Below, piece by piece: positions 19,898 through 63,741 of a stretch of 64,000 bases of DNA (position 1 is its first letter; every line of letters begins with the position of its first letter). The DNA comes from Escherichia phage tuntematon. The stretch lies in sequence record NC_052660.1. One strand, 5' to 3'. Both the position numbers and the translations under genes were made by a program. Below the pieces are notes generated by a model, which was not told where the DNA came from, searched no databases, and saw nothing but the letters and a program-made list of their open reading frames with translations.

Positions 19898-21676
19898 GTG
19901 TCGCACATTATAACTAAATATGGATTTGATGTTGATCTTAGCAAGGAAGGGCATACAGGTTGTCCGCGCTGCATGAAAAATGGCAAGGATCGCTCTCGTA
20001 ATAACCTGATGGTTTATGGATTAGATTCTAATGGAGAGCATAAAGGTGCTAAGTGCTTTGCGTGTGAATACACTATTCCTAGCGTAGAATGGTTACGAGA
20101 AAATGGTGAAGTTTTAGAAGAAGAGGAGGAGATTGTGGGTTCGGAATTTAATAAACAGATTCATCGTAAAATTGTTCAAGAAACATCAACCAACCCACGT
20201 GGTTATCGAGGCATTAAAGAAAAAGTTTCATCTTTCTATGGTGTTCGTTATGAATACCGTCAGGAAGGGGATCAGATGGTAGTAGAAAGTTGTTTATATC
20301 CAACTACTATCGGTAAAGAGTTGGTTGGTTTTAAGCGTCGTATTCATCCTAAAGATTTCAGTAAACCTATTGGTCAAGTAGGTAAAGATGTAGATCTTTT
20401 TGGACAAATTCGTTTTGCAGACCGTTCTCATACTGTGGTAATTACAGGTGGTGAACACGATGCTCTGGCAGCTTATCAAATGCTGTCTGAAAACTTGGAC
20501 AACAAATATGAACTTCCAGCAGTAGTTAGTGGCACAACTGGTGAAACCAGTATGTATAAACAAGTTCAGGCACAATATCCTTTCTTTGAAAAATTTAAGA
20601 AGATTATTGTTTGCATGGATAATGACAAAGCTGGTAATGAGGCATTTGAAAATATTGTTAAGGTGCTGCCTCGTAACAAAGTCTACCGTATGCAGATGGA
20701 TCTTAAGGATGCCAATCAGTATCTGGAAGAAGGTCGTGCAAAAGATTTCGTAAAAGCTTTTTGGAGTGCTCGTCTATACACCCCAGCAGGTGTTTATGCT
20801 TCTAATGTCTTGTATGAAGCTGCATTAGAATGCTTGGAATCCAAGATGATTACCTTGCCTCCTTTTATGCGTGTTGCTGCAAATATGCTGGGTGGTGGTT
20901 TAGTAGAGGAAGAGATTACAGTTATCCTGGCAAAGACCAGTATCGGTAAAACTTTGATGGTGAACGAGATCACCAAACATATTATTGTTGCGCACCCAGA
21001 ACATACCCTAGGTATTCTGTCCTTGGAAGCAACTTATAAGAAATATTCTCGTAACCTGTTGTCCTCGTTCCTGCATATTCCTCTACACAGGAAAACACCG
21101 GAAGAGAAATTTCAAATCTTGGAAGAGAATAAAGAAAAAATCCTAGATTTTTACGAAAGAGAAGATGGATCACCACGTTTTTATGTGTGTGATGATCGTG
21201 GAGCAGATGTGGAGTCTATCAAAGAAAAAGTTTTGGAGATGATCATCTATTTTGGAGTAACAATTCTTGTTATCGACCCTTATTCTGATTTGCTTTCTGG
21301 TATGGATGTTCAAGCCCAGGAAGAGTTAGCAACATGGTTGAAGCGCATCATGAAAGAGTATGCTATAACCATTATCGTCATCTCACACGTTAAGAAGTCG
21401 GCTAATGGTGGCAATGAACACTTAACAGAGGACGATGCAATGGGTAGTAGTTTCTTGGCTAAAGGTGCTGGTATTACCTTGGCTTTGGAACGAGATAAAG
21501 CCGCTGAAGACCCTGTAGAACGCAATACGACTCATTGCTTTATCCTAAAAAACCGTGAGTTCTCGGAAACTGGTCCGGCAGGGCAGTTTTACTATGACAT
21601 TAGAACTGCAACTCTGCATGACAAAGAGCAGTATTTCAACAATCCTGCTAATTTGCCTACGGATAGCAACTATTAA
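19898..21676 (+). CDS. bifunctional primase-helicase (T7 gp4-like)
   Basis: GTG start after AGGAG; N-terminal Cys4 zinc ribbon (CPRC...CFAC), central TOPRIM-like region, C-terminal DnaB-like helicase with Walker A (AKTSIGKT) and Walker B (ILVIDPYSD). Confidence 0.85.
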   Translation: MSHIITKYGFDVDLSKEGHTGCPRCMKNGKDRSRNNLMVYGLDSNGEHKGAKCFACEYTIPSVEWLRENGEVLEEEEEIVGSEFNKQIHRKIVQETSTNPRGYRGIKEKVSSFYGVRYEYRQEGDQMVVESCLYPTTIGKELVGFKRRIHPKDFSKPIGQVGKDVDLFGQIRFADRSHTVVITGGEHDALAAYQMLSENLDNKYELPAVVSGTTGETSMYKQVQAQYPFFEKFKKIIVCMDNDKAGNEAFENIVKVLPRNKVYRMQMDLKDANQYLEEGRAKDFVKAFWSARLYTPAGVYASNVLYEAALECLESKMITLPPFMRVAANMLGGGLVEEEITVILAKTSIGKTLMVNEITKHIIVAHPEHTLGILSLEATYKKYSRNLLSSFLHIPLHRKTPEEKFQILEENKEKILDFYEREDGSPRFYVCDDRGADVESIKEKVLEMIIYFGVTILVIDPYSDLLSGMDVQAQEELATWLKRIMKEYAITIIVISHVKKSANGGNEHLTEDDAMGSSFLAKGAGITLALERDKAAEDPVERNTTHCFILKNREFSETGPAGQFYYDIRTATLHDKEQYFNNPANLPTDSNY

Positions 21677-21697
21677 GGGCTTCGGCCCTTTTATTAA
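21675..21697 (+). terminator. rho-independent terminator after the primase-helicase gene
   Basis: GGGCTTCGGCCC hairpin followed by TTTTATT. Confidence 0.6.
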
Positions 21698-21706
21698 AAA
21701 TACCTG

Positions 21707-21735
21707 TTGACAACTTTACGGAAGGGACTTATACT
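21707..21735 (+). promoter_or_regulatory. strong sigma70-like promoter
   Basis: TTGACA (21707-21712), 17-nt spacer, TATACT (21730-21735). Confidence 0.55.
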
Positions 21736-21768
21736 TGTCTCATCAACCAAACAAGAGGAGAAGTAAAA

Positions 21769-22209: not shown

Positions 22210-23004
22210 TTGAGCAAGTTGAATACACTTGATCAATATTACACTAACCCCGCTTATGCGGGGTTCTTATGTGATAAGATCAAAGAAATTTTTGGAGAGG
22301 AAGCTAACTACGTAGAACCATCTGCGGGAGAAGGAGCTTTCTCTTTTTGTTTTAAAAACATAACTTCTTTTGATATTGACCCTAAGTTTGAAGATTGTAT
22401 TGAGGCAGATTTTTTAGCTCAATCTGTTGAGTCTGTTGGCAGTGTAACTGCTTTTGTCGGTAATCCTCCGTTTGGAAAAAATGCCAGTCTTGCCATTAAG
22501 TTCTTTAACCATTGTGCTGAAATGTTGGATAACGAAGGTGGTATTTGTTTTATCTTGCCTCGCACATTTCAAAAAATCTTTTTTGCACACAAACTAAATC
22601 CCCACATGCATCTTCTTTACGAAGAAGAATGTCCAAAAGGATCTTTTATTCTTCATGGAGAACCTTGGGATGTTCCTTGTGTATTCCAGATATGGATTAA
22701 ACGCAACGAGAAGCGTTCTCCCGTTGTTTTAGGAGAGAATCGACTGTTCGTATTAGGTAACAGTAAAGACTACGATATAGCCGTTAGGAGAGCGGGAGCA
22801 AGTGCAGGTAAAGTGTTATCAGAAGAAGATTCTTTATCTGAAGCATCTACCTACTTTTTAAAAGCCTTGACTTCTGATCTTAAAACACGTATCATTGAGG
22901 CTTACCCGTTACTTAAAGCTGAAGCTAGTAAAACTGCGGGAGTAAGAAGTTTAAGTTTAAAAGAACTTCAGTGGGTTCTGGAGAACATTAGAAAGGAGGA
23001 ATAG
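22210..23004 (+). CDS. N6-adenine DNA methyltransferase
   Basis: TTG start after AAGGAGG; motif I (VEPSAGEGAF) followed by catalytic NPPF (VGNPPFG). Confidence 0.8.
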   Translation: MSKLNTLDQYYTNPAYAGFLCDKIKEIFGEEANYVEPSAGEGAFSFCFKNITSFDIDPKFEDCIEADFLAQSVESVGSVTAFVGNPPFGKNASLAIKFFNHCAEMLDNEGGICFILPRTFQKIFFAHKLNPHMHLLYEEECPKGSFILHGEPWDVPCVFQIWIKRNEKRSPVVLGENRLFVLGNSKDYDIAVRRAGASAGKVLSEEDSLSEASTYFLKALTSDLKTRIIEAYPLLKAEASKTAGVRSLSLKELQWVLENIRKEE

Positions 23005-25601
23005 TGAGTAAGTTTACATGGGATATTGAAGCAAACGGATTGTTGAATAATGACACTATTGATTATTTAGCTAGTCCTTATCGTCTCAAAGACACATTTC
23101 AAATGCACTGTATTGTCTTAGAGAACCATGAAACAGGAGAAATAGTAGCTTTCCACGATGGCCCTAAATACATCTTTGATGGGCGTCCTTATGAAGAGTC
23201 AGATGGTAAATACACATATGTTCTTAAAGAGTATGTGGCGCAAGATTACACACATTTTCAACTAAAAGATTTCCCAGATTTTATTAATCATGAAGGTTAT
23301 TTTAAAGACAAGCCTGAATATCTGGTTGAAATGGCTGTGGCTCACAACGGTATCAACTACGACTGGTTGGCTACAAAACTGTTTTATGGATTAGATTACA
23401 GTGTTAAATATAATACGTGGGGCAAAAATAAGGTAAAACTTATTGACTCCTTGATTTTGAGTAAAGTGTTAAACCCAGATCGAAAGATTGAGGGCAAATC
23501 AGGACATAGCTTGGCAGCACTTTCTCGAAAAGCAGGTGGTGATGTAAAAATAGATTTCCGTAAAGAGATTCCAGAAGAAGATCGATTTAAGACTTTTGCT
23601 GCGGATATGCTTTATTACTGTATCTATGACAACAAAGCCAATACGAGCGTATATAATTACCTTATGGAAGAATGGGGTGATTATGATAAATGGGAAGGTC
23701 CATTTGAACTTGAACAACGTGTAGCAGACATTATTACACGTCAGGAACACCGTGGATTTGCTTTTAACATGAAACAAGCAGAAGAGAACCTTGCTTTTTT
23801 GGATGCAGAAATGGAGCGTCTTCGTTTACTCGTTGAGCCTATTTTGCCACCTAAACCAGCAACAAAAGGTTATCTTAAGGCTTTTATTCCACCTAAGTTG
23901 CAAATTAAAAAGAACTTAGAGCCAACTAACCATATGATCAATTTTGCTAAGAAACATGATGGTCATTTGGAAGAGAGGGATGGCGATTGGTGGTTAGTTA
24001 TGTTGGGGAAAGAGTGGAAACTGCCAGTTGCAGCAGATGAACCTCTATGTGATCCTAACATTCCTGCAACATTGAACGATACAACCCATATTAAAAACTG
24101 GCTTGTAGGATTAGGTTGGGTACCATCTGAATATAAAGATAAAGACTTGACTCTTAAATCTGGCACCAAGATTAAAAAGAGCGAGGAAGAACTTCAGAAA
24201 GGTATTCGAGCTTACGTTGAGCAAACTCTATCTTCTAATTTTTGTCAGGATCGTTGTGATCATCTGGAGTGCACACCGGAAACCCTGGAAAGGAAGATTC
24301 AAGAGCGTATAGCAAAAGGTAAAGGTCGCGGTCTTAAAGTATTGACTAACCCATGTTTTACCAAAGGTCAGGAAAAAGAAATTTGTCCTAACCTGCAAGC
24401 TTTGGGTGAGAAGTTTCCTTATGCTACACAGATTGTAGAATACTTAACGTATAAGCATCGTAGGAACTCTATTTTAGGTGGCGGTGCTGATTGGGAAGAA
24501 GATGAAGAAGATCAAGAATACGATAAAGGTTTCTTAGCCGCAGTAAGGGCGGATGGGCGTATTCCTACCCCAGCCGCTACATGTGATGCTGCAACCTCTC
24601 GTATGAAGCATAGATCTGTAGCTAATATTCCTCGTGTCACATCTTTGTTTGGATGGGAGATGCGTAACTTGTTTGGTGTAGAGGTTCCTAAATACTTCCA
24701 GATCGGCTACGATTTCGACTCTTTGGAAGCAAAAATTGAATCACACTACTGTTGGCGGTACGAGCCGGAGCCACACGAATATTGTAACGCTCTGTTGTTA
24801 GAGAAACCTAACGATGTTCACACAATGATGGCAAAACGTATCACTGAAACTATTGGACGTAAATTTGAACGTAGTCCTGCTAAATCTGTTAAGTATGGTA
24901 TTACCTATGGTGCACAAGCCGACAAGGTTGCTAAAACAATTGGTAGCGATAAGTTTACAGGTCAATTGGTGTTTGATGCTTTCTGGGAAGCTGCATTCCC
25001 ATTGGCGCGTCTTAAAGAACGTTTAAACGATTTCTGGGTTAAGACTGGTAAACAATATGTTTTGGGTATTGACGGTCGTAAGGTTCCTACTCGTTCTGCT
25101 CACGCGATTCTTAACTCTCTATTCCAAAGCGGCGGGGTTATCTGTGCTAAACGTGCAATGGTTATTTATGACGACATGATCGAAGAAGAAGGGCTAAGTG
25201 TTGACTTCTTTAAAGATGACTGGAAGAATAAAGACTTCGTGCAACAAATGATCGCATATCACGATGAAGCCCAGCTTGAAGTTTCTCGTAACCTTGTAGA
25301 ATTTAAATGGTTTTCACCTGAATCATTAGGTTGGAAGAAAGTAGACGATCCTGAAGAACAAAAGAAAATTGATAAAGAATGCCTTGCTAAAGTTGAAGAA
25401 TGGAAGCATAATAAGGAAAAAGAGACGGGACAAATTTGGGCTAACATTCATGAATCTCCCAAAGGTGGATGGTTTACAGCCTATAGTCGGGCAGGTGAAC
25501 TTGCTGCTTTAGCTGTTACTAAGGCTGGAGAATTTTACAATCTTAATGTTCAGCTTACTGCCGGATATGATGTGGGTAACTCCTGGGCGTCCTGTCACTA
25601 G
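23004..25601 (+). CDS. DNA polymerase, family A, with 3'-5' exonuclease domain
   Basis: 865 aa; Exo I (FTWDIEANGL); Pol A motif A-like (DFDSLEAKI), motif B (RSPAKSVKYGITYGA) and motif C (AYHDEAQLEV). Confidence 0.88.
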   Translation: MSKFTWDIEANGLLNNDTIDYLASPYRLKDTFQMHCIVLENHETGEIVAFHDGPKYIFDGRPYEESDGKYTYVLKEYVAQDYTHFQLKDFPDFINHEGYFKDKPEYLVEMAVAHNGINYDWLATKLFYGLDYSVKYNTWGKNKVKLIDSLILSKVLNPDRKIEGKSGHSLAALSRKAGGDVKIDFRKEIPEEDRFKTFAADMLYYCIYDNKANTSVYNYLMEEWGDYDKWEGPFELEQRVADIITRQEHRGFAFNMKQAEENLAFLDAEMERLRLLVEPILPPKPATKGYLKAFIPPKLQIKKNLEPTNHMINFAKKHDGHLEERDGDWWLVMLGKEWKLPVAADEPLCDPNIPATLNDTTHIKNWLVGLGWVPSEYKDKDLTLKSGTKIKKSEEELQKGIRAYVEQTLSSNFCQDRCDHLECTPETLERKIQERIAKGKGRGLKVLTNPCFTKGQEKEICPNLQALGEKFPYATQIVEYLTYKHRRNSILGGGADWEEDEEDQEYDKGFLAAVRADGRIPTPAATCDAATSRMKHRSVANIPRVTSLFGWEMRNLFGVEVPKYFQIGYDFDSLEAKIESHYCWRYEPEPHEYCNALLLEKPNDVHTMMAKRITETIGRKFERSPAKSVKYGITYGAQADKVAKTIGSDKFTGQLVFDAFWEAAFPLARLKERLNDFWVKTGKQYVLGIDGRKVPTRSAHAILNSLFQSGGVICAKRAMVIYDDMIEEEGLSVDFFKDDWKNKDFVQQMIAYHDEAQLEVSRNLVEFKWFSPESLGWKKVDDPEEQKKIDKECLAKVEEWKHNKEKETGQIWANIHESPKGGWFTAYSRAGELAALAVTKAGEFYNLNVQLTAGYDVGNSWASCH

Positions 25602-25618
25602 TTAACTCATTGTTTTAT

Positions 25619-25640
25619 AAGGGGCTTCTGCCCCTTTATA
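25619..25640 (+). terminator. terminator-like hairpin after the DNA polymerase gene
   Basis: AAGGGGC-ttct-GCCCCTT followed by TATA; U-tract weak. Confidence 0.45.
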
Positions 25641-25649
25641 GGAGGAGAT

Positions 25650-25841
25650 ATGCATTACGATTTAGATTGTCTTGGTATGCCTTACCTACCAGATGAATTT
25701 GAAGGTGAAGAAGAACGTGAATGGGACGATGGGGATATCCGTTGTTGGTCTTGTGGTAAAGATATGTCTTATGAACAACATATGCACAATGATGGTTTCT
25801 GCATACATTGTTATAATGAAATTGATCTGGAGGAAGATTAA
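25650..25841 (+). CDS. hypothetical small Cys/His-rich protein
   Basis: 63 aa with CWSC...CIHC; AGGAGGAG RBS. Confidence 0.4.
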   Translation: MHYDLDCLGMPYLPDEFEGEEEREWDDGDIRCWSCGKDMSYEQHMHNDGFCIHCYNEIDLEED

Positions 25842-26008
25842 TGGGAAATGGTATCATGATTTGCTATAAAATTGTGCGTATTGTCGGAGACGAAGTTACC
25901 ACTCGGTATTTTATGATAGAGTCTCAAGCCGATGAGGTTTACAATGACTGGCTTGAAAAAGGTGGATACGATTTTGTATCTAAAGAAACTTTCCGTTTAG
26001 AGGTATAA
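25841..26008 (+). CDS. hypothetical small protein (55 aa, absent from ORF track)
   Basis: ATG at 25841 overlaps the upstream stop (TAATG) and follows GGAGGAAG; fills the gap to 26019. Confidence 0.3.
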   Translation: MGNGIMICYKIVRIVGDEVTTRYFMIESQADEVYNDWLEKGGYDFVSKETFRLEV

Positions 26009-26018
26009 GGAGAAAACA

Positions 26019-26237
26019 ATGCGTAAACTAGTGAGCTTTAATGTTTCAATTCTTATTGATGAACAAAATGAAGATGTTATTAAAGGTCTTGCAAATAAGA
26101 TTGCAGGTGGAATGACGGAAGCTGAAGTGTGGGAAGAATGTGCTCGACTTTATGAGGAAGGTGTTATTGAGGTCTTGGGGGATGAGATTAATATGGACGA
26201 TGTTGTAAAAGTAACTGTGGAGCGTATCAATGACTAA
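26019..26237 (+). CDS. hypothetical small acidic protein
   Basis: 72 aa ORF with AAGGAG RBS. Confidence 0.4.
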   Translation: MRKLVSFNVSILIDEQNEDVIKGLANKIAGGMTEAEVWEECARLYEEGVIEVLGDEINMDDVVKVTVERIND

Positions 26238-26823
26238 ATCAAAACAAATCAATATTGCCAAAGAAATTCTTACCGTATTAAAGATCGCTGATCCTAATTC
26301 TGTCTTGGCTGGCGGTGCTGTTCGTGATTGGCGTATTCTTGATATTGCTGGACGTGATCTGGATTTCTATACATCCCTTCCTGCACATCGGACTGAAGAA
26401 CAAATACAAGGATTAATTGCATCTGCTTTAATGGGAACCAATATTCGTAAACTAGGAAACAAAGAGGCTTCTGACAATTATGAAGGTGTTACTGGTCTTA
26501 AACACGTTTTTGAGTTTGAACGTGATGGTCAGCTTTGCAACCTTATGATTATGGAACCAAGCGTAATGACAACCTTTCTAAATGAGTTCGATCTGTCCAT
26601 CTGCCAGGCTGCATTTGATGGGAAGGACTGTTATTATTCTAAAGATTTTGAAACAACCTTGGAAACAGGGATCTGCTTCTTGCACAAAGATGTTAGAGAA
26701 GATGCCAAACACGTTATTAAAATTGCTACACGTTTCCCATATCTTCGTTTTGTGAAAGAGGTTAAGGTTCCACGTCCACCTCAAGTAGATACCAGATTGG
26801 AAGAAGATGATATTCCTTGGTAA
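26230..26823 (+). CDS. pol-beta superfamily nucleotidyltransferase (tRNA CCA-adding / poly(A) polymerase head-domain-like)
   Basis: LAGGAVRDWRILDIAGRDLDFY matches the GGAVRD...DxD signature of tRNA nucleotidyltransferase head domains; only 197 aa (no HD domain); C-terminus EEDDIPW. Confidence 0.55.
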   Translation: MTKSKQINIAKEILTVLKIADPNSVLAGGAVRDWRILDIAGRDLDFYTSLPAHRTEEQIQGLIASALMGTNIRKLGNKEASDNYEGVTGLKHVFEFERDGQLCNLMIMEPSVMTTFLNEFDLSICQAAFDGKDCYYSKDFETTLETGICFLHKDVREDAKHVIKIATRFPYLRFVKEVKVPRPPQVDTRLEEDDIPW

Positions 26824-26868
26824 TTAAAGCTTGACAATATTAAACATTTTATGATAGGATAGCATTCA

Positions 26869-27261: not shown

Positions 27262-27277
27262 TGTAGAGGAGATAATA

Positions 27278-28165: not shown

Positions 28166-28189
28166 TCTTATTGATTTATAAAGAGTTTT

Positions 28190-28228
28190 TATAAAAGAAA
28201 GGAGCCATTTGGCTCCTTTTCTTATTTA
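28190..28228. terminator. bidirectional rho-independent terminator at the convergence of the two arms
   Basis: AAAGGAGCC-attt-GGCTCCTTT hairpin flanked by T-runs on both strands, between the + strand SSB-like gene and the - strand fibre gene. Confidence 0.7.
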
Positions 28229-53727: not shown

Positions 53728-53747
53728 AGTATGTTCCTCGTGTTGGA

Positions 53748-54496: not shown

Positions 54497-54507
54497 ATTT
54501 TCCTCTC

Positions 54508-54536: not shown

Positions 54537-54541
54537 ATTTA

Positions 54542-55021: not shown

Positions 55022-55067
55022 TATAGATCCTCTTTATTTTGATAACGGGGGCTTAACCCCCGCCATA

Positions 55068-56441: not shown

Positions 56442-56475
56442 TTATGCTCCTGTTAGAAACTTAATTCCAATGAGT

Positions 56476-57135
56476 TTATTCGGTAGGGTTGTTAAATAAT
56501 GATCCATTTTGATTGACTGACGAGTATTCGCCTGGAACCAAAGTAATTGCATAAACCCTGTTTAGAATTAAATCTAAAGGGATAGGATCATTGTAACTAT
56601 CTCTGAATGAACGGATGTGCATGTTGATTGCTTCTATTGGTGTAGTAGCAATATCTTCAATACTCATACGAGTGTTGAACGTCATAACCATACGCGCTCT
56701 TAATTCAGTCTTATCTCCGTCTACAATTGTATTGGCTTGAGCTATATTGGAGGCTCCTAAAAAACCAAGACCTTTAGAATAGAGATGTTTGTATTTTAAT
56801 TCCTCTGCACCACGGAGAGCAGCCAGAACATAGCTCATCAAAGTGGTAGGTCTTCCACGATAGGCTACAAGTTCAATCTCGTAGGTATTATCCATCTCGT
56901 AGGAATACATATCATTTTGAATAGAGCTTCGGTAAGACCAACCTCCAGAATCGCTGGAAGTGATAATATGTAGTGCTAGGTAAGGAGTATCCGGTTTAAT
57001 GAATGGCTTATCCATAACATAGACTGGCAACCCCACTAATTCTTGAAGGAAGCCACCTATATTTAAGTAGATGGCATTTTCGTATGCTTCTATTTGTTGG
57101 TAAATATTAGCCAAAGTTTCCTCCTTCTGTTCCAT
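56476..57135 (-). CDS. hypothetical head-tail joining region protein
   Basis: 219 aa ORF. Confidence 0.35.
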   Translation of the reverse strand: MEQKEETLANIYQQIEAYENAIYLNIGGFLQELVGLPVYVMDKPFIKPDTPYLALHIITSSDSGGWSYRSSIQNDMYSYEMDNTYEIELVAYRGRPTTLMSYVLAALRGAEELKYKHLYSKGLGFLGASNIAQANTIVDGDKTELRARMVMTFNTRMSIEDIATTPIEAINMHIRSFRDSYNDPIPLDLILNRVYAITLVPGEYSSVNQNGSLFNNPTE

Positions 57136-57556
57136 AAGACCAGGAGTTGTTTTGATCGTCTAATATTGCAACACAGTGATGATGGACTAAGAAAGATGTT
57201 CTGGTCCAATCTTTAAGGGAATAAACAGAATACCATTTACCATCTATCAGTATTTGATCTGATAACTGTTCTGTTCCTTGTTGTAACCCCTTCATTTCTG
57301 TTTTAGTCCAGAAACTATATTGAGCCTTAGATCTGTAACCTTCAGGTAGTGCATTCAGTGTTTTACCAGATATCGGTTGTAAGCTTGCCGCTTCAATGGT
57401 AAATGGTTCATATTCTACACTACTTTCTAAGTTAGCAATAACTGAACCAACTGCCTCTTTGTAGACTCGTCTACGACCTTGGTATTCAGTTAGATCAAGG
57501 AGAGTAAATTGATCTAGTAACACTTGTATCTCCTTTTTAGTATACATCAAAAACAA
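57107..57556 (-). CDS. hypothetical head-tail joining region protein
   Basis: 149 aa ORF; 3' end overlaps the next gene. Confidence 0.35.
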   Translation of the reverse strand: MFLMYTKKEIQVLLDQFTLLDLTEYQGRRRVYKEAVGSVIANLESSVEYEPFTIEAASLQPISGKTLNALPEGYRSKAQYSFWTKTEMKGLQQGTEQLSDQILIDGKWYSVYSLKDWTRTSFLVHHHCVAILDDQNNSWSYGTEGGNFG

Positions 57557-57568
57557 AGTTTATGCAAG

Positions 57569-58057
57569 TTATTTTTTAGACTTGCTTTTTGTGATTTTTG
57601 TTTCGATTGCATTTATCATGTGTGCCGTATCTATTAAGATATGATTAGAATAGTTGCCTTTATCTTGTCGTATCTTAATTGTCACAGGAGATAAAGGACG
57701 ATAACGTTGCATTGCAATCGCTTGAGCTATTCCTTCTCTAGAGGCTCTCGCTATAGGCTCAAAAACAGCTAACCCGACATTATTCAGTAAGTAATTTGCA
57801 AACACCTGCTTCATCTTTTTAGCGATATTGTTCTGTGAGATAACAGCACCATCTGTTATAAAAGGGCGAGCAGGTATGTTATTTGTTTCATTACCATATT
57901 GTTGAATAGCTGCTATTGCAGGAATAGTGAGATCTGATTCAGGATGCCTTTTGTTTGTTAAAAAACCAGCCTCGATTTGAACTTGTTCAAGGTCCATCAT
58001 CTTTTTGATAATGGTTTCCCAATCTGTATCGTCACCTGGTAAGATCTCACTTTCCAT
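57569..58057 (-). CDS. hypothetical head-tail joining region protein
   Basis: 162 aa ORF. Confidence 0.35.
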   Translation of the reverse strand: MESEILPGDDTDWETIIKKMMDLEQVQIEAGFLTNKRHPESDLTIPAIAAIQQYGNETNNIPARPFITDGAVISQNNIAKKMKQVFANYLLNNVGLAVFEPIARASREGIAQAIAMQRYRPLSPVTIKIRQDKGNYSNHILIDTAHMINAIETKITKSKSKK

Positions 58058-58605
58058 TATTTGTCCCTACGATAAAAAGAAACAGGTCCGTAATTTCGCA
58101 AATAATTAACGTTGCGTGTATTACGATCAACACTTGCAACATTACCAAGACCATTCACAGAGTTAGGATCGCTGTTTACTCGATCAATCTCACGAGCATC
58201 CACACCACCAATAAGAACTTTACTGGTTGCTCCTCGTCCTGCCGTGCACCCAGGAATGACCATAAGACCATTTAAATAGTTATGATAAATATCTTCCCAC
58301 GGAGATTTATAAGTGACTTGACCGTTGTTAAATTTAACTTCAACTTCGACTTCACCCATCTTTTCTCTGCGGGACATAGCTCCTCCTGTTTGAGTATTGT
58401 TGTTAAGAACATCGTTGTTCCATAAATACTCTAAAACAGAAATCAAGCTGTTCCACAATACTGCACACTTATCCTTATCTTCATTCCCTATAATATCAAT
58501 CCAAGTTTGGATGATCTGAATCAGCATTGCGTCTGGCAATACTTCTTGAGAAGGGTTATAAACAAGGATTCGGATCAGTGGTGCCAACTCTACCGCATTC
58601 AGCAT
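58057..58605 (-). CDS. hypothetical head-tail joining region protein
   Basis: 182 aa ORF. Confidence 0.35.
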   Translation of the reverse strand: MLNAVELAPLIRILVYNPSQEVLPDAMLIQIIQTWIDIIGNEDKDKCAVLWNSLISVLEYLWNNDVLNNNTQTGGAMSRREKMGEVEVEVKFNNGQVTYKSPWEDIYHNYLNGLMVIPGCTAGRGATSKVLIGGVDAREIDRVNSDPNSVNGLGNVASVDRNTRNVNYLRNYGPVSFYRRDK

Positions 58606-58614
58606 AAGCCCACC

Positions 58615-59013
58615 TTATTTTTTACGAAGGGAACGTTTTTTAGCTGGAGTGTCTACCGCTTCTACTTTTAAAACTTCTTCTTTGATTTTTACAGGCGAAT
58701 AGTCTTCATAACTTACAAGATAGTAACCCATGTGTTCTTCACTTGCAAAAGGATGCACAAGAATACCTGTTTCTTCTCTCAAACGCGTGAGGAAGTGAAT
58801 GAAGTTTCCACCTAATGCAATACGACCATCTTTCAGATAGAAAGACATTGGTGGCGCAGATACTAATGTTTTATCAGCATCAATCAGTGGTGAAAGCGAT
58901 TCGAAATCACGAATCATTTCGTGATAACTAAAGTAACGTTTCAATTCTGGGTTTGACATATCAATCTCCTCATTGTAAACTCTTATTGTAAACAGAAAAG
59001 GCTCGCCCATCAC
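58615..59013 (-). CDS. hypothetical head completion-region protein
   Basis: 132 aa ORF. Confidence 0.35.
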   Translation of the reverse strand: MMGEPFLFTIRVYNEEIDMSNPELKRYFSYHEMIRDFESLSPLIDADKTLVSAPPMSFYLKDGRIALGGNFIHFLTRLREETGILVHPFASEEHMGYYLVSYEDYSPVKIKEEVLKVEAVDTPAKKRSLRKK

Positions 59014-59023
59014 GGACGAGCCT
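58986..59023 (-). terminator. rho-independent terminator after the major capsid gene
   Basis: On the - strand, AGGCTCGTCC...GGCGAGCCT hairpin followed by TTTTCTGTTT. Confidence 0.55.
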
Positions 59024-59043
59024 CTAATATTAACAGAGTTCTA

Positions 59044-60045
59044 TTAAGCCGTAGTCAGTTTAACTACCAGTTCTGGACGGGTGTTAACTGCGAGCAGCGA
59101 GAATTCAGACTGAAGCTGAATAGTGCGGTGCTGGCTGATCATGAAGGTATACAGTTCACGAGCCTGGGTGTTAGCCAGTTCTGGAGTATCCGCAGGAGCG
59201 TAGTGTGCCTGGAACATACCTTCGATACCCATAGGCAGAACATATGCTTCACCAGCAGGGATGTTACCGTGGATATCTTCAATGTAAGTTACACCGTTCC
59301 ATTCGAACACCTGAACATCCATGTTACCGCTAAGGCGGTCACGCAGAAGGTTAGGAGTTCCCTGGAAATACTGATATGCCTGGCGAACAAATGGAGAGTT
59401 AACCAGAGATGCGAAAAACTCACGAGAACACAGAGCTACGATACGGGTAGCGGTAGAGCCATCTTGTTTAGTATCGATGATGTAAGCACGAGCTTCTTGT
59501 TCGATAGTGGCTGCTGGAGAAACAGTGGTAGAAGCAAAGTCTACAGCAACAGATTTCTGGGTAGCACCCCATTCGGTATACCAGTTGTATGCAGAGTTAG
59601 CTGCACCACCTACGCCGTTATAGGCACGACCCATAACTGCTTCTGCAAAGATTTTCTCTTTGGTTTTTGCTACGTCACGCAGAATCTGGGACATATAGCG
59701 GTTAACAACTTCAGCGTCTGTGCGCAGAGAGTCATTGATTCCTGCCATTGCAAAGCTACGGAAAGATTGAATATCTTGAGCTTTGATGTTTTTATCCAGA
59801 GGGAAGAACGGAATGCGGAACGCTTTCAGTTCTGGATTTTTCATGGTCAGGAAGTTACGCTCACCACCACGCTCACGAGCGGAGATCAGAGCATCTTCAG
59901 CTTTTTCTTTACCGATTTCAATAGCGGTAGTTGAATGATAGTCAACACTGAACAGATTCAGGCTGGCAATCAGTGTATCAGGGGAATCCTGAAGTTCGAT
60001 CATAGGGCTGAAATCTACAACCTGATCTAAAATTACTGCTGGCAT
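59044..60045 (-). CDS. major capsid protein (lambda gpE-like family)
   Basis: 333 aa; C-terminal VLPMG...NTQARELYTF resembles the lambda gpE region around NTQARGLRTY; follows scaffold and decoration-like genes; strong AGGAG RBS. Confidence 0.65.
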   Translation of the reverse strand: MPAVILDQVVDFSPMIELQDSPDTLIASLNLFSVDYHSTTAIEIGKEKAEDALISARERGGERNFLTMKNPELKAFRIPFFPLDKNIKAQDIQSFRSFAMAGINDSLRTDAEVVNRYMSQILRDVAKTKEKIFAEAVMGRAYNGVGGAANSAYNWYTEWGATQKSVAVDFASTTVSPAATIEQEARAYIIDTKQDGSTATRIVALCSREFFASLVNSPFVRQAYQYFQGTPNLLRDRLSGNMDVQVFEWNGVTYIEDIHGNIPAGEAYVLPMGIEGMFQAHYAPADTPELANTQARELYTFMISQHRTIQLQSEFSLLAVNTRPELVVKLTTA

Positions 60046-60066
60046 TATATTAATCTCCTATTAAAA

Positions 60067-60465
60067 TTAAGAAGTGAAAACGACTTTTTCGGTCAGTTTC
60101 AGATCATGTGTTTCCAGTGCTGCTACGCCAGCGTCATCTACCAGGGAGCCATCTTTGTAGTATACTGCAAAGCGGTTCAGAGTAAGATCACGTACGCCAA
60201 CAACTGCGGTGAAAGTGTCACCTACTGCTACATCGTCAATACCGAACAGAGCATCAGTCCAAAGCAGAACTTTAGCAGCATCGGCAGCTTCAGCTTTAGC
60301 AGCTTCAGTGTTGTCAGCTTTCAGGATAGAACCAATTTTCATGGTTGCTGTTTTAACCAGGTTAACTTCACGTACACAGTGTCCAAGGTCAGAGCTAAAC
60401 ACTCCACCCAGAACCAGGTGTCCGAATTCCTGGCGAGAGTTAGATAAAGTAATTCCTTTAGCCAT
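60067..60465 (-). CDS. head decoration protein (lambda gpD-like, putative)
   Basis: 132 aa ORF immediately upstream of the major capsid gene; assignment mainly by position and size. Confidence 0.45.
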   Translation of the reverse strand: MAKGITLSNSRQEFGHLVLGGVFSSDLGHCVREVNLVKTATMKIGSILKADNTEAAKAEAADAAKVLLWTDALFGIDDVAVGDTFTAVVGVRDLTLNRFAVYYKDGSLVDDAGVAALETHDLKLTEKVVFTS

Positions 60466-60484
60466 TTAATTTAATCTCCTAAGA

Positions 60485-61600
60485 TTATTGTTTCTGGGCT
60501 TTTTTAAGTTCAGCAGCTTTCTGACTAATCAGTTCAGAAGAAGATTTAGCTACAGGTTGAGTATTGATCACATCAACACCACGTTCTGTTCCAAATTCTT
60601 TCTTAACTGCGTCCACTTCTGCACGTGCTTTTTCGAATGCTTTGACGATAGTTTCAGCGATATCTTTATTGTCTACCAGATATTTAACGAGAGCTTCAAC
60701 TTTGTCTTCTTCTACGAAAGAATAGGATTTAACAACAGTTGTATATTCTTCTTCGATACGAGCTTGTTCAGCTTTACGAAGTTCTTCTGCTTCCTGTTCT
60801 GCCTTAGCGATTTTTTCCTGTGCTTCAAGTTCTGCGGCTGCACGTGCATCTGCTGCTGCTTTTTCTACAGCTTCAGCGATCTGTGCTTTCATCAGTTCTT
60901 GGAATTCAGCAGATTTCAGGAATTCTTCTTTGTTGATATTTTCCAAAGGGGTTTCTCCTTTATTGATTCCAGTTGTGTTTGCAGATTTATCACCTGCGGG
61001 GTTAGCCTCTGCATCCACAGAGTTTGTATTAGCTTTAGCGTGAGCTTTCACTAAATAATCTTTAACTTGACTTTGTTTCAAGGAACTCTTAACGAGATTA
61101 CTCAAAGCATCGTCTAAAACGTCCTCAAAGAAATCAATGGAGATCATTACATCACCATCAACAACTTGATAATCAGTAACACGAACAACAGGTTTAGCAA
61201 CCTCTTCAACTTCAACATTCAGTCCGTCAACTTTAAAGCCAACAGAGAACATACCGTTATCTGAACAGAAAATTGCAACGTTCGCATCGAAGTCAGCATC
61301 AATAACGTAAACCCAATCCCAACCAGCTTCAAATTTTTCACGCACTTTTTCAGAAATGCGATCCATCACTTGTTGAATATAGCTTTTACGTAACTCTGTA
61401 ACATCTTCTCCCATTTTAGTGAGAGCTTCTAACTTTTCAAAAGTTATGTCTGGAGATCCGTCTGACTTAAATAAAAGGGGGGTATTATAACCAGATGCCG
61501 CTCCACCTTGAAAATCAAAAGTGTAAGCAATATGAGCACCTAGTGACTCTTCCGTAGCTTTTCCAGAAAAGTCTACGTTAGTTAAATATGTATTTGCCAC
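60485..61600 (-). CDS. scaffolding protein (putative)
   Basis: 371 aa; strongly helical, charged C-terminal half (AEAVEKAAADARAAAELEAQEKIAKAEQEAEELRKAEQARIEEE); located between portal and capsid genes. Confidence 0.5.
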   Translation of the reverse strand: MANTYLTNVDFSGKATEESLGAHIAYTFDFQGGAASGYNTPLLFKSDGSPDITFEKLEALTKMGEDVTELRKSYIQQVMDRISEKVREKFEAGWDWVYVIDADFDANVAIFCSDNGMFSVGFKVDGLNVEVEEVAKPVVRVTDYQVVDGDVMISIDFFEDVLDDALSNLVKSSLKQSQVKDYLVKAHAKANTNSVDAEANPAGDKSANTTGINKGETPLENINKEEFLKSAEFQELMKAQIAEAVEKAAADARAAAELEAQEKIAKAEQEAEELRKAEQARIEEEYTTVVKSYSFVEEDKVEALVKYLVDNKDIAETIVKAFEKARAEVDAVKKEFGTERGVDVINTQPVAKSSSELISQKAAELKKAQKQ

Positions 61601-61602
61601 GA

Positions 61603-62082
61603 TTAGTCCTTCTTGACTTTAACGCCCATTGCGCCTATACTCAAACCTTTAAGAACGCCGTCTTTACGAGCTTGATATAATTCAGGGTCGTTGAATTGGA
61701 TTTTAACGAGGGGAGTTCCTTCCACAACGAGTTCGTCACCAATGTAACAATCGACTTCATTTACCCAAGCTTTAATTGGAGAAAACTTATCGGTGTTCTT
61801 CATGTGACCAAGATTACCACTAATGTTGGTAATATTCTCATTGAAGTTGTCAACCATCTTCCTGATTTCCAAATCAGACATGCGCTCTCCGTGGAGATCG
61901 TCTTCTTCAGGTGGACAATACAAGACCTCAATAACCTGCATCTTTTCTTCATCAAATTTATTTTGTTTGACTAGAGTTTCAGGTTTTTGAGATGGTATAG
62001 AATCTTGTTGGGATTCAGAATTCTCTTTAAAACCAGCGAAGGTTTTGAAGAGTTCCCACAGTGTATCTTTATTGAGTTCCAT
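61603..62082 (-). CDS. hypothetical head morphogenesis protein
   Basis: 159 aa ORF between portal and scaffold genes. Confidence 0.35.
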   Translation of the reverse strand: MELNKDTLWELFKTFAGFKENSESQQDSIPSQKPETLVKQNKFDEEKMQVIEVLYCPPEEDDLHGERMSDLEIRKMVDNFNENITNISGNLGHMKNTDKFSPIKAWVNEVDCYIGDELVVEGTPLVKIQFNDPELYQARKDGVLKGLSIGAMGVKVKKD

Positions 62083-62118
62083 TTGAAACCTCTTAAAAAC
62101 AGATATCCCATAAATCTT

Positions 62119-62147
62119 AGTCTACAGGATATTTGTTGTTTTGTCAA
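62119..62147 (-). promoter_or_regulatory. sigma70-like promoter (- strand)
   Basis: On the - strand, TTGACA (62147-62142), 17-nt spacer, TAGACT. Confidence 0.4.
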
Positions 62148-62175
62148 TAGAAAAATTAAAAAATATTAAATATTT

Positions 62176-63741
62176 TTAATTCGACAGGTTTTGTGCTGAA
62201 GGATCTAAAGCAGAAACAGTATCAGATGTTCCAGTTCCCGCTGTAGCTAAACCGTCTCCTGATCGTGAAGTTTTGTCAGGCATATAGTTATCCATGAATT
62301 CAAAGAATTTCTCTTTATTGGCAACAATATCGTCAGGGATGCGATATTCAAAACCAATTTTTTCAAGGAACTCGTTAATAACTTCTGGGGTTAAAGGTAT
62401 TGCACCAGAGGCTACCAACTGCTGAATAGCTTTAGCATTTACTTCAATATCAGGATCACCCATTTCACCACTGACAAACTTAGGCATATCTTCATCAGAA
62501 AGGAAGATATTGTTTAGTCGTAGTGTTTGAGGGATCAGTTGAGAGTTTATAGCTTCTACAACAATATCTACATCTCGCTCAATAAAATGAGACAATAGTG
62601 TTTGTTTGTTGTCAGAAAGCGCAAAACTTCCTGCATCACCATCACCCATAATCAACACACCCGCACCAAAGCGGTTATAAATATCTAGCTTGCGTTGTTT
62701 GATTAGTGCTTGAGTGTCAAACTGTTTACCCGTGCCATCAACACCTTGGAATACAAGATCGTATTGACGCATCACTGTGCCTTCATAAACGTCTGAAGGC
62801 AATACCATGTAGGCTTGCTCACCAGAGTGCAGGTTAGCGATGTTGGCTTGGAGAACTCGAAGAGATTGTGCTTCATCCCCAGCAGGATCTAAAGATGCCC
62901 TGTTTAGAATGTCACTTGGAACCTTAAGAACTGGCATACCACCTAAATCTTTAGATACCCCAATAACCTCAAATTCCTGAATAAGAGATTTTTCACGCCA
63001 GCTACGATATACAGCTAAAAGCGGACTAACTCCTAGTGGGTTATTCTCTGTAATGTTGCTACCAACAAATAGAACTTTACTGAAAGGAATTTCTTTAATA
63101 CCAGTTTCTAAAGTTGTATTACCTGGAGCTAACATCGTATTGGTGATATTCTGGTTAACAGATAGAATAGAACGTCCGTCTGCCGAATATGTAAAAGGTT
63201 GAGCCATGTGAAGAGTGTCTTGTGGTCTAAAAGCCAGTTTGGTTAATCGCCAATACCCAAAGTAAGGACTTTTAGGATCTTCATCCAACTCATAAACTTT
63301 CTCTGCGAATGCAAAACCATATTGCTTATATGTCAAAAGTGATCTAACATATTGACGTAGAGGGGCTTGCATATTGCGCAACATGTAATCAATAAACTTA
63401 GCAGCTTTTCTTGACTTTGCCGAGTTTACATTGTATTTTATCTTGAAATCAAAGAATGCTCTATCTACAAAGATATATGTAGCGTCAAGAGCAGTAGCTA
63501 CATCAGGGTCTTCACCCATCTCTTTAAAAGTGCGAATACATTCTGGGAAACGAGTCTCATAAGGTTGCATGAAATTCGTAAATGCTTTGATTGAGTTTAA
63601 TCCGATCGTTCCTATTTCAGGTGACAGGAGTAACGTTTTCTCTTTCTCTGCCTCTTTTGTTGGAGAGAGAGCAGCTTTATTTGCAGCACCTTTGTCCCAG
63701 TATTCTGACTTTTTAGTGTACGTTCTTTTTCCTGTTGACAC
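62176..63741 (-). CDS. portal protein (putative)
   Basis: 521 aa; GTG start preceded by GGAGG; first gene downstream of a strong promoter and followed by scaffold/capsid genes; size typical of portals; no motif verified. Confidence 0.55.
   Translation of the reverse strand: MSTGKRTYTKKSEYWDKGAANKAALSPTKEAEKEKTLLLSPEIGTIGLNSIKAFTNFMQPYETRFPECIRTFKEMGEDPDVATALDATYIFVDRAFFDFKIKYNVNSAKSRKAAKFIDYMLRNMQAPLRQYVRSLLTYKQYGFAFAEKVYELDEDPKSPYFGYWRLTKLAFRPQDTLHMAQPFTYSADGRSILSVNQNITNTMLAPGNTTLETGIKEIPFSKVLFVGSNITENNPLGVSPLLAVYRSWREKSLIQEFEVIGVSKDLGGMPVLKVPSDILNRASLDPAGDEAQSLRVLQANIANLHSGEQAYMVLPSDVYEGTVMRQYDLVFQGVDGTGKQFDTQALIKQRKLDIYNRFGAGVLIMGDGDAGSFALSDNKQTLLSHFIERDVDIVVEAINSQLIPQTLRLNNIFLSDEDMPKFVSGEMGDPDIEVNAKAIQQLVASGAIPLTPEVINEFLEKIGFEYRIPDDIVANKEKFFEFMDNYMPDKTSRSGDGLATAGTGTSDTVSALDPSAQNLSN

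Follow-up and report, generated by a model that had tools for sequence, protein, structure and literature searches.

Replication, head and contractile-tail genes of a phAPEC8-like phage genome segment follow the standard layout of the rV5/phi92/phAPEC8 group

Results

Placement among known phages

The DNA analyzed here, 64,000 nt from Escherichia phage tuntematon (NC_052660.1; hereafter the window; 64 kb of a ~150-kb genome), is almost certainly a segment of a Phapecoctavirus (phAPEC8-like) E. coli myovirus that has Escherichia phage nieznany as its nearest relative and the standard layout of its group. The original prediction was that the span 19898-63741 joins a T7-like replisome, a lambda-like capsid module and a contractile-tail module, and that this combination may mark an under-described lineage. 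Domain and fold matches largely bear out the module types; the conclusion of a new lineage falls, as the group is a known one. The combination is real but is the long-described layout of the rV5/phi92/phAPEC8 group, and is already known. The window and nieznany, whose record is assigned to subfamily Stephanstirmvirinae, genus Phapecoctavirus, are 98-100% identical; calculated for the whole window, identity is ~98.3% across ~98% of its length, and positions 29144-64000 align at 99.8% identity with zero gaps. The type phage of the genus, phAPEC8, is 97.4-99.0% identical to the window. The results show close similarity to a known genus, and the suggestion of an under-described lineage is withdrawn.

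Comparison with phi92, a related phage from a sister genus of Phapecoctavirus, extends the correspondence to proteins. For phi92, cryo-EM structures of the virion exist for both the extended and the contracted state, with protein roles assigned. Within the span 19898-63741, 37 of the 40 ORFs compared have phi92 homologues, in conserved order and at 42-92% identity (one nucleotidyltransferase, at 37%, lies below the range of the other ORFs). Correspondence is full-length from portal through inner baseplate, and also for the wedge and fibre III, and solved phi92 structures are matched by the portal, capsid, cement and sheath proteins; four receptor-binding proteins match phi92 only partly. A 2013 paper on rV5 describes the same mix of replisome, capsid, tail and promoters in the rV5/phi92/phAPEC8 group, namely a helicase of gp4d type that has homologues in podoviruses, Pol A, a capsid protein with its decoration protein, a sheath with its tube, and sigma70 promoters scattered genome-wide, and reports the same modules in rV5 and PVP-SE1.

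The span, which runs from the start of the primase-helicase ORF (19898) to the start of the minus-strand portal ORF (63741), is best explained as the place where two transcription arms of a lytic, ~150-kb E. coli myovirus converge. The last genes of the rightward arm are replication genes (gp4-type primase-helicase, family A polymerase, nucleotidyltransferase and OB-fold SSB-like protein), and a bidirectional terminator-like hairpin near 28.2 kb closes the arm. The late arm, read leftward, starts with the portal (Mu type), the protease (XkdF type), the scaffold candidate, the cement protein (beta-tulip) and the E-family HK97-fold capsid protein, continues with the neck, contractile sheath and tube, -1 frameshift chaperone pair and tape measure, and finishes with a simple P2/Mu/Pam3-like baseplate followed by several tail fibres and tailspikes, which determine host range. 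On this reading the architecture is ancient and stably inherited in the whole rV5/phi92/phAPEC8 supergroup, and neither a recent nor an unusual mosaic.

Replication genes

The T7-like character predicted for the replication genes is borne out by domain matches and by the fact that the only PDB relatives of the two central proteins are T7 gp4 and T7 gp5. The first gene (19898-21676, plus strand) encodes a 592-aa bifunctional primase-helicase of T7 gp4 type (Pfam Toprim_2 and DnaB_C), with an N-terminal Cys4 zinc motif (CPRC...CFAC, a CxxC...CxxC arrangement), a Toprim primase domain and a DnaB-like helicase domain with Walker A motif AKTSIGKT. It matches phrog_239 (DNA primase/helicase, E 2e-164), is 71% identical to phi92 gp161, and in the PDB matches T7 gp4 only (5ikn, 6n7i, 1q57; E about 1e-24, best 7e-25). 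The family A DNA polymerase (23004-25601, plus strand; 865 aa; PF00476; phrog_17, E 3e-111) has T7 gp5 as all four of its PDB matches (E 1e-22, covering part of the polymerase) and over residues 1-583 is 75% identical to phi92 gp159; the phi92 GenBank record labels its own polymerase 'Similar to DNA polymerase from T7-like phages'. The window polymerase is uninterrupted and intein-less; that of nieznany is interrupted, after the position matching window residue 632, by a 324-aa insert whose boundaries are of intein type (Cys first, Asn last, Cys at +1).

Between these genes, at 22210-23004 on the plus strand, lies a 264-aa putative DNA N6-adenine methyltransferase-like protein (phrog_5172; annotation of nieznany gp204), with a weak match to phrog_799 DNA methyltransferase and zero matches in a Pfam search. 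Downstream on the same strand are a 197-aa nucleotidyltransferase (26230-26823; phrog_10174, E 6e-63; phi92 gp158 homologue) and a 295-aa OB-fold protein, a putative SSB (27278-28165), with an N-terminal OB domain, a four-helix domain and a disordered acidic tail that ends in EPPMDFDDDIPF. This C-terminal tip is exactly that of E. coli SSB. A terminator-like hairpin at 28197-28220, with 9-10 pairs followed by a T run and the form of a bidirectional intrinsic terminator on both strands, sits at the border between the rightward replication arm and the leftward structural arm, and the sign of GC skew flips at ~28 kb. Elsewhere in the window, nrdD is intact.

Head genes

All head and tail genes are on the minus strand. 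The portal (62176-63741; 521 aa) belongs to PF06074 Portal_Mu (E 1e-18) and is 83% identical to phi92 gp120 (PDB 21vl_H, E 2e-294). It is followed by a 159-aa XkdF-type prohead protease (61603-62082; PF14550 Peptidase_S78_2, E 1e-11; phrog_3017, head maturation protease) and by a 371-aa scaffold candidate (60485-61600), which has an Ala/Glu/Lys-rich C-terminal half and is 74% identical to phi92 gp122, annotated as 'potential scaffold protein'. The cement/decoration protein (60067-60465; 132 aa; phrog_2680 head decoration; PDB 21uy_E, E 1e-71) is 89% identical to phi92 gp123, which in the phi92 structure is a trimeric beta-tulip at the 3-fold axes, 'similar to the CPs of T1, lambda and TW1'. 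The major capsid protein (59044-60045; 333 aa; HK97 fold) belongs to PF03864 Phage_cap_E, the lambda gpE family (E 1e-36), and is 90% identical to phi92 gp124 (PDB 21uy_N, E 1e-201).

The likeness to lambda is confined to capsid protein family, cement protein fold and gene order. A gpE-like major capsid protein and a D-like decoration protein, both predicted, are present. By analogy with phi92, from whose structure the fold is taken, the cement protein is gpD-like in fold only; a search that admitted E values up to 10 gave zero matches to the Pfam family of lambda gpD. The predicted lambda-like portal is instead of Mu type, and the protease is XkdF/S78_2, in contrast to the gpC/S49 protease of lambda. 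BLASTP and phmmer comparisons with lambda B, C, Nu3, D and E gave, as the sole match, 37 capsid residues to gpE (E 0.014). The lambda capsid is T=7. The homologous phi92 capsid, in contrast, is T=13 by cryo-EM. Tail contractility, the T=13 value and the place of the cement protein on the capsid are known from relatives, through published structures and microscopy; the sequence identities, the domain and fold assignments, and the conservation of slippery site and promoter elements come from the present analysis.

Five neck proteins follow the capsid gene, with roles known from the phi92 structure: the homologue of gp125 (58615-59013), the adaptor (gp126; 58057-58605), the homologue of gp127 (57569-58057), the stopper (gp128; 57107-57556) and the tail terminator (gp129; 56476-57135). 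They are 65-76% identical to their phi92 counterparts, with Pfam matches to Phage_tail_terminator_9 and Phage_HCP. The neck ORFs are given as maximal, and the true starts probably lie a few codons downstream.

Tail genes

The predicted sheath, tube, tape measure and baseplate genes were all identified by phi92, Pfam or phrog matches. The contractile sheath (55068-56441; 457 aa) is 77% identical to phi92 gp130 and matches phrog_205 tail sheath (E 3e-100) and PDB 21vm/21wl (E 2e-235), and the tube (54542-55021; 159 aa) is 92% identical to phi92 gp131. The tail assembly chaperone pair (53748-54496; PF21822 Phage_TAC_15, E 1e-23) comprises a G-like ORF (54014-54496) with a slippery site, CCCTTTTTTC, inside it at 54086-54077. 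The site consists of two overlapping in-frame X XXY YYZ heptamers, and the -1 frame is open, such that a -1 slip would carry reading to the stop at 53748 and yield a GT-like product. The same slippery site, at the same codon and with an open -1 frame, is present in phi92 gp132/gp133. From these features we infer -1 frameshifting, consistent with the predicted G/GT-type pair.

The tape measure (51739-53727; 662 aa; phrog_16051, 1244 bits) is 42% identical to phi92 gp134. The inner baseplate (48113-51612), with roles assigned in the solved phi92 baseplate, comprises the tube initiator (gp135 homologue; 50911-51612), plug (gp136; 50495-50908), hub (gp137; 49475-50485), central spike (homologous to the phi92 central spike protein; 48741-49475) and sheath initiator (gp139; 48113-48739), at 70-83% identity to their phi92 counterparts and with Pfam matches to Dit_like, Pam3_gp18, E217_GP41 and both spike domains. 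The two baseplate wedge heterotrimer subunits (38022-40141; 209 and 495 aa) correspond to phi92 gp146 (87% identity) and gp145 (80%), the proteins that build the wedge of the phi92 baseplate structure.

Three peripheral tail proteins (42602-48113) of 717, 958 and 157 aa are homologues of phi92 gp142, gp141 and gp140 (77%, 83% and 83% identity), with Pfam matches to PF23845, PF23844 and Calx-beta; the 717-aa protein has Calx-beta plus a TIM barrel. We rejected it as a candidate sheath: 'non-contractile tail sheath', the name of its family, is no more than a label, and the protein is a gp142 homologue. Fibre III (36981-38012) is 72% identical to phi92 gp147, identified as fibre III by cryo-EM, and is accompanied by a tail-fibre assembly protein (36426-36965; gp148, 46%) and a lipoprotein (36080-36415; gp149, 76%). 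Two tailspikes match phi92 at the N terminus only: a 1017-aa receptor-binding, colanidase-type tailspike (33023-36076; 215 aa, 75% to gp150), annotated in nieznany with 'colanic acid degradation', and a 452-aa tailspike (41235-42593; 86 aa, 62% to the endosialidase gp143), whose N-terminal anchor is of gp143 type and whose distal domain differs, and which is annotated 'tail spike protein' in nieznany. A receptor-binding, gp151-like tail fibre (30936-32960) is 59% identical to gp151 over its full length. An 890-aa tail protein with a variable distal end (28222-30894) matches gp152 over residues 411-584 (66%), and its 3' end, within 28161-29144, is unalignable to nieznany.

Alternative readings

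That the module combination marks an under-described lineage is extremely improbable. T7-type replication, an E-family capsid and a contractile tail are truly combined, and many ORFs of the group are still annotated 'hypothetical', but the reading fails because more than 60 deposited genomes match at >=95% identity (~63 records for each half of the span 19898-63741); moreover, Phapecoctavirus and Stephanstirmvirinae are ICTV taxa, 90 papers in the literature collection name the genus or its type phage, whole-virion cryo-EM exists for the sister genus, and the architecture was published in 2013. We give next to no credence to a recent chimera, formed by joining the replication block of a T7-like podovirus and the head block of a lambdoid phage to a myovirus backbone. 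In its favour, solved structures related to the primase-helicase and polymerase come from T7 alone, and Pfam places the capsid protein in the family of lambda gpE; however, the T7 similarity is remote (E about 1e-22 to 1e-25, the polymerase only partly covered), lambda similarity is undetectable by BLASTP and phmmer save the 37 capsid residues, portal and protease are not lambda-type, and GC content is uniform across the arms (0.37-0.43 over the window). Phage phi92 carries the same modules, ordered alike and 70-90% identical at the protein level, and the rV5 paper reports them from rV5 and PVP-SE1; being common to these phages, the combination is older than the split of their genera. A non-contractile tail, suggested by the label on the 717-aa protein (42602-44755), is likewise vanishingly unlikely. 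PF23845, PF23844, several GenBank records and PDB chain 9lc0_I bear that name, but the protein lies among fibre genes and its phi92 homologue is annotated as a potential tail fibre protein; the true sheath is at 55068-56441, with a homologue solved both extended and contracted; and the window also encodes the sheath and tube initiators, the hub, the spike and the wedge. Electron microscopy published for Phapecoctavirus and Stephanstirmvirinae members shows contractile-tailed myoviruses, in agreement with the predicted morphology.

Placement in Phapecoctavirus is supplemented, not replaced, by a reading of mosaicism within the genus. Zero single records in the phage collection (August 2025 release) match the window end to end, such that the isolate may be missing from the collection or may be a within-genus recombinant. 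We lean modestly toward a recombinant of nieznany-, SKA64- and ETEC-TG-like parents with a different mobile-element load. The best match shifts from SKA64 (99.1%, 1-20000) to ETEC-TG (a single 98.5% piece, 24500-29300) to nieznany (100.0%, 44000-64000), identity to nieznany drops to 93.7% at 2839-12006, and the intein, nrdD insert and two endonuclease genes of nieznany are absent from the window; the shifts could also come from uneven divergence plus incomplete sampling, rather than from discrete recombination.

Transcription signals

Within the Phapecoctavirus segment, transcription most likely relies on the sigma70 RNA polymerase of the host and starts at intergenic promoters whose use is predicted from their sequences and positions. 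In total, sigma70-like sites are no more numerous than expected from shuffled sequence (52 against 50.7, and 46 against 52.5). Nine of the 30 strongest sites are intergenic on the coding strand, where ~1.2 are expected (p about 1.5e-6), and six of these nine lie within 19898-63741, on both arms, in agreement with the original prediction. The part of the nieznany record inspected, positions 1-139,500 (all but its final 5.5 kb), carries no annotated RNA polymerase. On the plus strand, a sigma70-like promoter with TTGACA, a 17-nt spacer and TATACT lies in the gap after the primase-helicase gene (21707-21735), and the sequence scan gave a second at 26831-26860. On the minus strand, the gap between the tape-measure and tube-initiator genes contains a terminator hairpin and, after it, a sigma70-like promoter with TTGACA, an 18-nt spacer and a TG-extended TACAAT (51672-51732); phi92 keeps the hairpin, TTGACA box and TGnTAnAAT, and the flanking bases differ. 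A minus-strand sigma70-like promoter upstream of the portal gene (63811-63839; TTGACA, 17-nt spacer, TATTAT) has its -35 box kept in phi92 and its -10 element less so, and one upstream of the protease gene (62119-62147; TTGACA, 17-nt spacer, TAGACT) is identical in phi92, in a highly conserved surrounding spacer.

The architecture is that of an established genus

The original prediction was that a T7-like replisome, a lambda-like capsid, a contractile tail and sigma70-like promoters, brought together within positions 19898-63741, may mark an under-described lineage. The coordinates are exact and the observation is largely accurate; the proposed lineage is refuted, as far as 64 kb shows, by near-identity to well-characterised genomes of the genus Phapecoctavirus. 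Megablast searches of the span against 50,697 phage records indicate that the best match to 19898-44000 is Escherichia phage nieznany (98.8% identity over 96% of the query; 63 records at 95% identity or above), and that 44000-64000 is 100.0% identical to nieznany over 100% of the query and 99.0% identical to phAPEC8, the type phage of Phapecoctavirus (again 63 records at 95% or above). Local BLAST against nieznany gives 99.8% identity, gap-free, across 29144-64000 and 93.7-98.6% identity across the left arm; arithmetic from these alignments yields an overall identity of about 98.3% across about 98% of the 64 kb. phAPEC8 aligns to 100% of 1-20000 (97.4%) and to 100% of 44000-64000 (99.0%).

Nieznany (MN850598 / NC_052659) and phAPEC8 (JX561091) match the window in gene order and gene content throughout, share its host genus and have a GC content near 39%. 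RefSeq places nieznany in Caudoviricetes; Stephanstirmvirinae; Phapecoctavirus. The ICTV genus threshold is nucleotide identity of at least about 70% over genome length and, judged on 64 kb of about 150 kb, high identity and collinearity with phAPEC8 and other members place the window in Phapecoctavirus. The original prediction had itself named close whole-genome similarity to a known genus as a reason to abandon the idea of a new lineage, and matches of at least 95% to a characterised genus are, within 64 kb, similarity of that kind.

We conclude that the architecture is already known: it is the standard layout on record for E. coli myoviruses of the phAPEC8/phi92/rV5 group. The publication of phAPEC8 dates from 2012 and the proposal of the genus Phapecoctavirus from 2019; nieznany came from Danish wastewater by isolation on MG1655. 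The subfamily Stephanstirmvirinae comprises Phapecoctavirus and Justusliebigvirus (phi92-like phages), all with myovirus morphology. The 2013 description of rV5 names phAPEC8 and phi92 as relatives. In this supergroup it reports a polymerase of the Pol A type, a gp4d-domain helicase with homologues among podovirus primase/helicases, a major capsid protein together with a decoration protein, sheath and tube proteins, several tail fibres, and sigma70-consensus promoters scattered across the genome (PMC3606486). Going by that description, rV5 and its relatives (Vequintavirinae) have the same overall architecture as the window, although rV5 belongs to another subfamily and its sequences are more distant. 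Escherichia phage phi92 (NC_023693) is collinear with the window from portal gene to primase-helicase gene, its proteins being 42-92% identical. The complete phi92 virion has been determined by cryo-EM in extended and contracted states (PMC13450770, 2026; PDB 21uy, 21vl, 21vm, 21wl), and this structure gives a structure-based role to most structural ORFs of the window, from portal to fibre III. The group has been studied chiefly as therapy candidates and for its multivalent tail-fibre sets, and the architecture as such has little discovery value. Scans of the window for tRNA genes and Rfam families found none.

Replication genes are T7-like by remote homology

The replication genes bear out the T7-like assignment. 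The 592-aa primase-helicase carries, in one polypeptide, the zinc motif, Toprim domain and DnaB-like helicase that define the T7 gp4 type: an N-terminal Cys4 motif CPRC...CFAC (CxxC at residues 22-25 and 53-56), Toprim_2 at residues 182-276 and DnaB_C at residues 333-554 (Pfam). Its residues 146-574 align to T7 gp4 with an E-value of 7e-25, T7 gp4 chains are its sole solved relatives in the PDB, and it is 71% identical to the phi92 primase-helicase. The 865-aa polymerase has the palm and fingers of family A (PF00476, 51 bits vs a cut-off of 34.3), and all four PDB sequences that it matches at E < 0.001 are T7 gp5 (E 1e-22); the GenBank record of phi92 labels the polymerase of that phage 'Similar to DNA polymerase from T7-like phages'. 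We conclude that 'T7-like' is a fair term for the primase-helicase and the polymerase, but that the homology to the T7 replisome is remote. A further difference from T7 is that nieznany, the nearest genome, has no annotated phage RNA polymerase in positions 1-139,500.

The capsid module resembles lambda in gene order, in one protein family and in one fold

The original prediction also described the capsid as resembling that of lambda. This holds for gene order, which is portal-protease-scaffold-decoration-major capsid in both, for the family of the major capsid protein and for the fold of the decoration protein; it is overstated for the portal, the protease and the scaffold. The major capsid protein matches the full-length profile of the lambda gpE family (PF03864, E 1e-36, 127 bits vs a cut-off of 22.9, residues 14-331 of 333), although its pairwise similarity to gpE is marginal: in BLASTP and phmmer comparisons with lambda B, C, Nu3, D and E, the sole match is of the capsid protein to gpE, over 37 residues at E 0.014. 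It is 90% identical to phi92 gp124 and matches PDB 21uy.

For the 132-aa cement protein, membership of the gpD sequence family was considered and rejected: Pfam gives no match to the family even at E up to 10, gpD is absent from the PDB sequence matches, and BLASTP and phmmer against lambda D find nothing. The likeness is in fold only. The cement protein is 89% identical to phi92 gp123, a trimeric beta-tulip at the 3-fold and quasi-3-fold axes of the capsid (PMC13450770), which would place it in the gpD-like beta-tulip fold class; by this homology, 'D-like' is correct as regards fold and position.

The portal is of Mu type (PF06074, Portal_Mu; 83% identical to the phi92 portal) and the protease of XkdF/S78_2 type (PF14550), rather than a lambda-type gpB portal and an S49 protease with nested scaffold (gpC/Nu3). 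Portal, protease and scaffold show no similarity to lambda B, C and Nu3 by BLASTP or phmmer. The scaffold candidate, of 371 aa and enriched in Ala, Glu and Lys in its C-terminal half, is encoded by a separate gene; its only PHROG match is a function-unknown family, and its phi92 homologue, gp122, bears the annotation 'potential scaffold protein'. The likeness to lambda thus extends to gene order, a single protein family and a single fold, and the capsid module is not lambda-derived. The lambda capsid has T=7 symmetry. The phi92 capsid has T=13 symmetry (PMC13450770).

In RefSeq, the gene at 61603-62082 (-) is named 'DNA methyltransferase' for both nieznany and phi92, a name that its best PHROG also has. 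The label is probably wrong: the product matches the Pfam family Peptidase_S78_2 (XkdF prohead protease) at E 1e-11 and also head-maturation-protease PHROGs, and the gene lies between the portal and scaffold genes.

The tail is predicted to be contractile, with probable exchange of receptor-binding domains

Every element of the contractile-tail module named in the original prediction is found, and each is assigned through a phi92 homologue whose place in the virion structure is known. The sheath (77% identical to its phi92 homologue; PDB 21vm/21wl, E 2e-235), tube (92%), sheath initiator (73%), tube initiator (70%), hub (83%), central spike (73%, to the phi92 protein between gp137 and gp139) and wedge pair (80% and 87%) together span 70-92% identity to structurally assigned phi92 proteins; the plug (74%), fibre III (72%) and the tape measure (42%) also have phi92 homologues. 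Independent Pfam matches, to Dit_like, Pam3_gp18, the E217 hub and both spike domains, are all to families from contractile-tailed phages, and the literature on Phapecoctavirus members describes contractile tails. A possible argument against a contractile tail comes from the 717-aa protein encoded at 42602-44755 (-), which matches Pfam families named 'non-contractile tail sheath protein'. We rejected this argument: the protein has Calx-beta and TIM-barrel domains, is 77% identical to phi92 gp142 and is encoded among the fibre genes, and the family name is misleading here.

The chaperone gene likewise agrees with the original prediction of a G/GT-type pair with a frameshift. The chaperone ORF (PF21822) lies just upstream of the tape-measure gene; near its end, the slippery sequence CCCTTTTTTC at 54086-54077 contains two overlapping, in-frame heptamers of the form X XXY YYZ, CCCTTTT (54086) and TTTTTTC (54083), and the -1 frame is open from the slippery site to 53748. 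In phi92 the same slippery run lies at the same codon, and the -1 frame is open through the separately annotated gp133. A -1 frameshift at the chaperone pair is thus a well-supported prediction, to which the conservation in phi92 adds support; database records annotate the products as two separate genes or miss the frameshift.

The receptor-binding domains differ between phi92 and the window. The tailspike encoded at 33023-36076 (-) has only its N-terminal 215 aa in common with the phi92 colanidase gp150, the tailspike encoded at 41235-42593 (-) has only its N-terminal 86 aa in common with the phi92 endosialidase gp143, and the window encodes no endosialidase. Retention of N-terminal anchors with divergent distal domains fits modular exchange of host-range domains. 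In the 890-aa tail protein encoded at 28222-30894, the 3' (distal) end, within 28161-29144, cannot be aligned to nieznany, which suggests that the receptor-binding tip has been swapped relative to that phage.

Promoter placement is consistent with use of host RNA polymerase

The original prediction placed sigma70-like promoters on both arms, implying reliance on host RNA polymerase. An overall excess of sigma70-like sites was rejected, the total count being at the level of chance in comparison with shuffled sequences; the one departure from chance is in where the strongest sites fall. Of the top 30 in the window, 9 occupy intergenic gaps in the coding orientation, vs about 1.2 expected (binomial p ~1.5e-6), and six of these nine lie within 19898-63741, on both arms. 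Predicted -10 elements have coordinates ending at 21735, 26860, 51672, 62119 and 63811. The gap that separates the tape-measure gene from the tube-initiator gene holds a terminator hairpin, a TTGACA box and a -10 element with a TG extension, all three of which are kept in phi92 while the neighbouring bases differ.

T4-late-type promoters were considered and rejected. A T4-late-like motif has been reported upstream of late genes in rV5, but in the window the motif TATAAATA is not enriched (7 occurrences vs 4.6 expected) and no occurrence lies upstream of a late gene. Given the promoter placement, the conservation in phi92, the lack of T4-late enrichment and the lack of an annotated RNA polymerase in nieznany positions 1-139,500, it is reasonable to infer that the phage would depend on the host sigma70 polymerase, as has likewise been proposed for rV5 (PMC3606486).

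A perfect hairpin at 28197-28220, which scores as a terminator on both strands, lies exactly where the rightward and leftward arms converge, which is also where the sign of the GC skew changes.

Deep mosaicism is old, and recombination appears to occur within the genus

The term 'mosaic' stands in the deep sense that applies to all tailed phages, the nearest characterised relatives of the modules being found in different model phages; it does not stand in the sense of a recent chimera. The GC content is uniform across the window (0.37-0.43), similarity is remote to T7 and near zero to lambda, and the modules have the same order in phi92 and, according to the literature, in rV5 and PVP-SE1 (PMC3606486). 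We conclude from these three observations that the combination is old and stably inherited.

At the scale of the genus, a shallow mosaic is seen. The best match shifts along the window, from SKA64 across 1-20000 (99.1%) to nieznany across 44000-64000 (100.0%), with identity to nieznany falling to 93.7% across 2839-12006 and with an ETEC-TG-like layout across 24500-29300, in one piece at 98.5%. No record in the August 2025 phage collection matches the whole window end to end. The shifting best match suggests recombination within the genus.

Nieznany differs from the window by four insertions: an intein-like insert in Pol A, an ORF that splits nrdD, gp206 and gp213. The Pol A gene at 23004-25601 is uninterrupted in the window, whereas that of nieznany has a 324-aa in-frame insert at ~24899-24903, and the phi92 polymerase is likewise interrupted there, by about 294 aa. 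The nieznany insert starts with Cys, ends with Asn and is followed at +1 by Cys where the window has Ile. Pfam detects no Hint/intein domain in it at E up to 0.01; we describe it as intein-like on the basis of its boundary residues and in-frame insertion. The nrdD gene at 1957-3771 (+), for anaerobic ribonucleotide reductase, is an intact single ORF of 604 aa in the window, whereas the nieznany record gives two CDSs for it, with a 169-aa ORF carrying HNH and I-HmuI-like domains between them; this arrangement suggests an insertion of the homing-endonuclease (intron-like) kind, missing from the window. The HNH gene gp206 and the endonuclease gene gp213 of nieznany are missing from the window at 25622-25638 and 28161-29144, and ETEC-TG has the window's layout.

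A predicted OB-fold protein ends in the C-terminal tip of host SSB

The 295-aa protein encoded at 27278-28165 (+) ends in EPPMDFDDDIPF, the same 12 residues that end E. coli SSB. It has no Pfam domain; structure prediction gives it an OB-fold domain, a domain of four helices and an acidic, disordered tail, the last of which is kept across 65 homologues. An SSB of the T7 gp2.5 type is defined by a gp2.5-like OB fold and an acidic C-terminal tail ending in Phe. The protein is probably the phage SSB, and it may engage host SSB-interacting proteins as well.

We tentatively raise a compound proposal, which we consider rather unlikely to hold in all its parts: that the isolate, lying outside the August 2025 phage collection, is a within-genus Phapecoctavirus recombinant whose replication arm has neither the intein nor the homing-endonuclease insertions that its nearest relative carries, and that its OB-fold protein couples the T7-type primase-helicase and polymerase to host SSB-interacting proteins, or competes with host SSB for these proteins. 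If so, the replisome would be only half T7-like. Phage SSBs with host-type SSB tails are already known in general, so the coupling, even if real, would be a modest addition.

Four consecutive genes at 16463-19607 (+), closely preceding the primase-helicase gene, are annotated as glycosyltransferases; the literature describes a complete dTDP-rhamnose pathway elsewhere in Phapecoctavirus-type genomes and speculates on DNA glycosylation.
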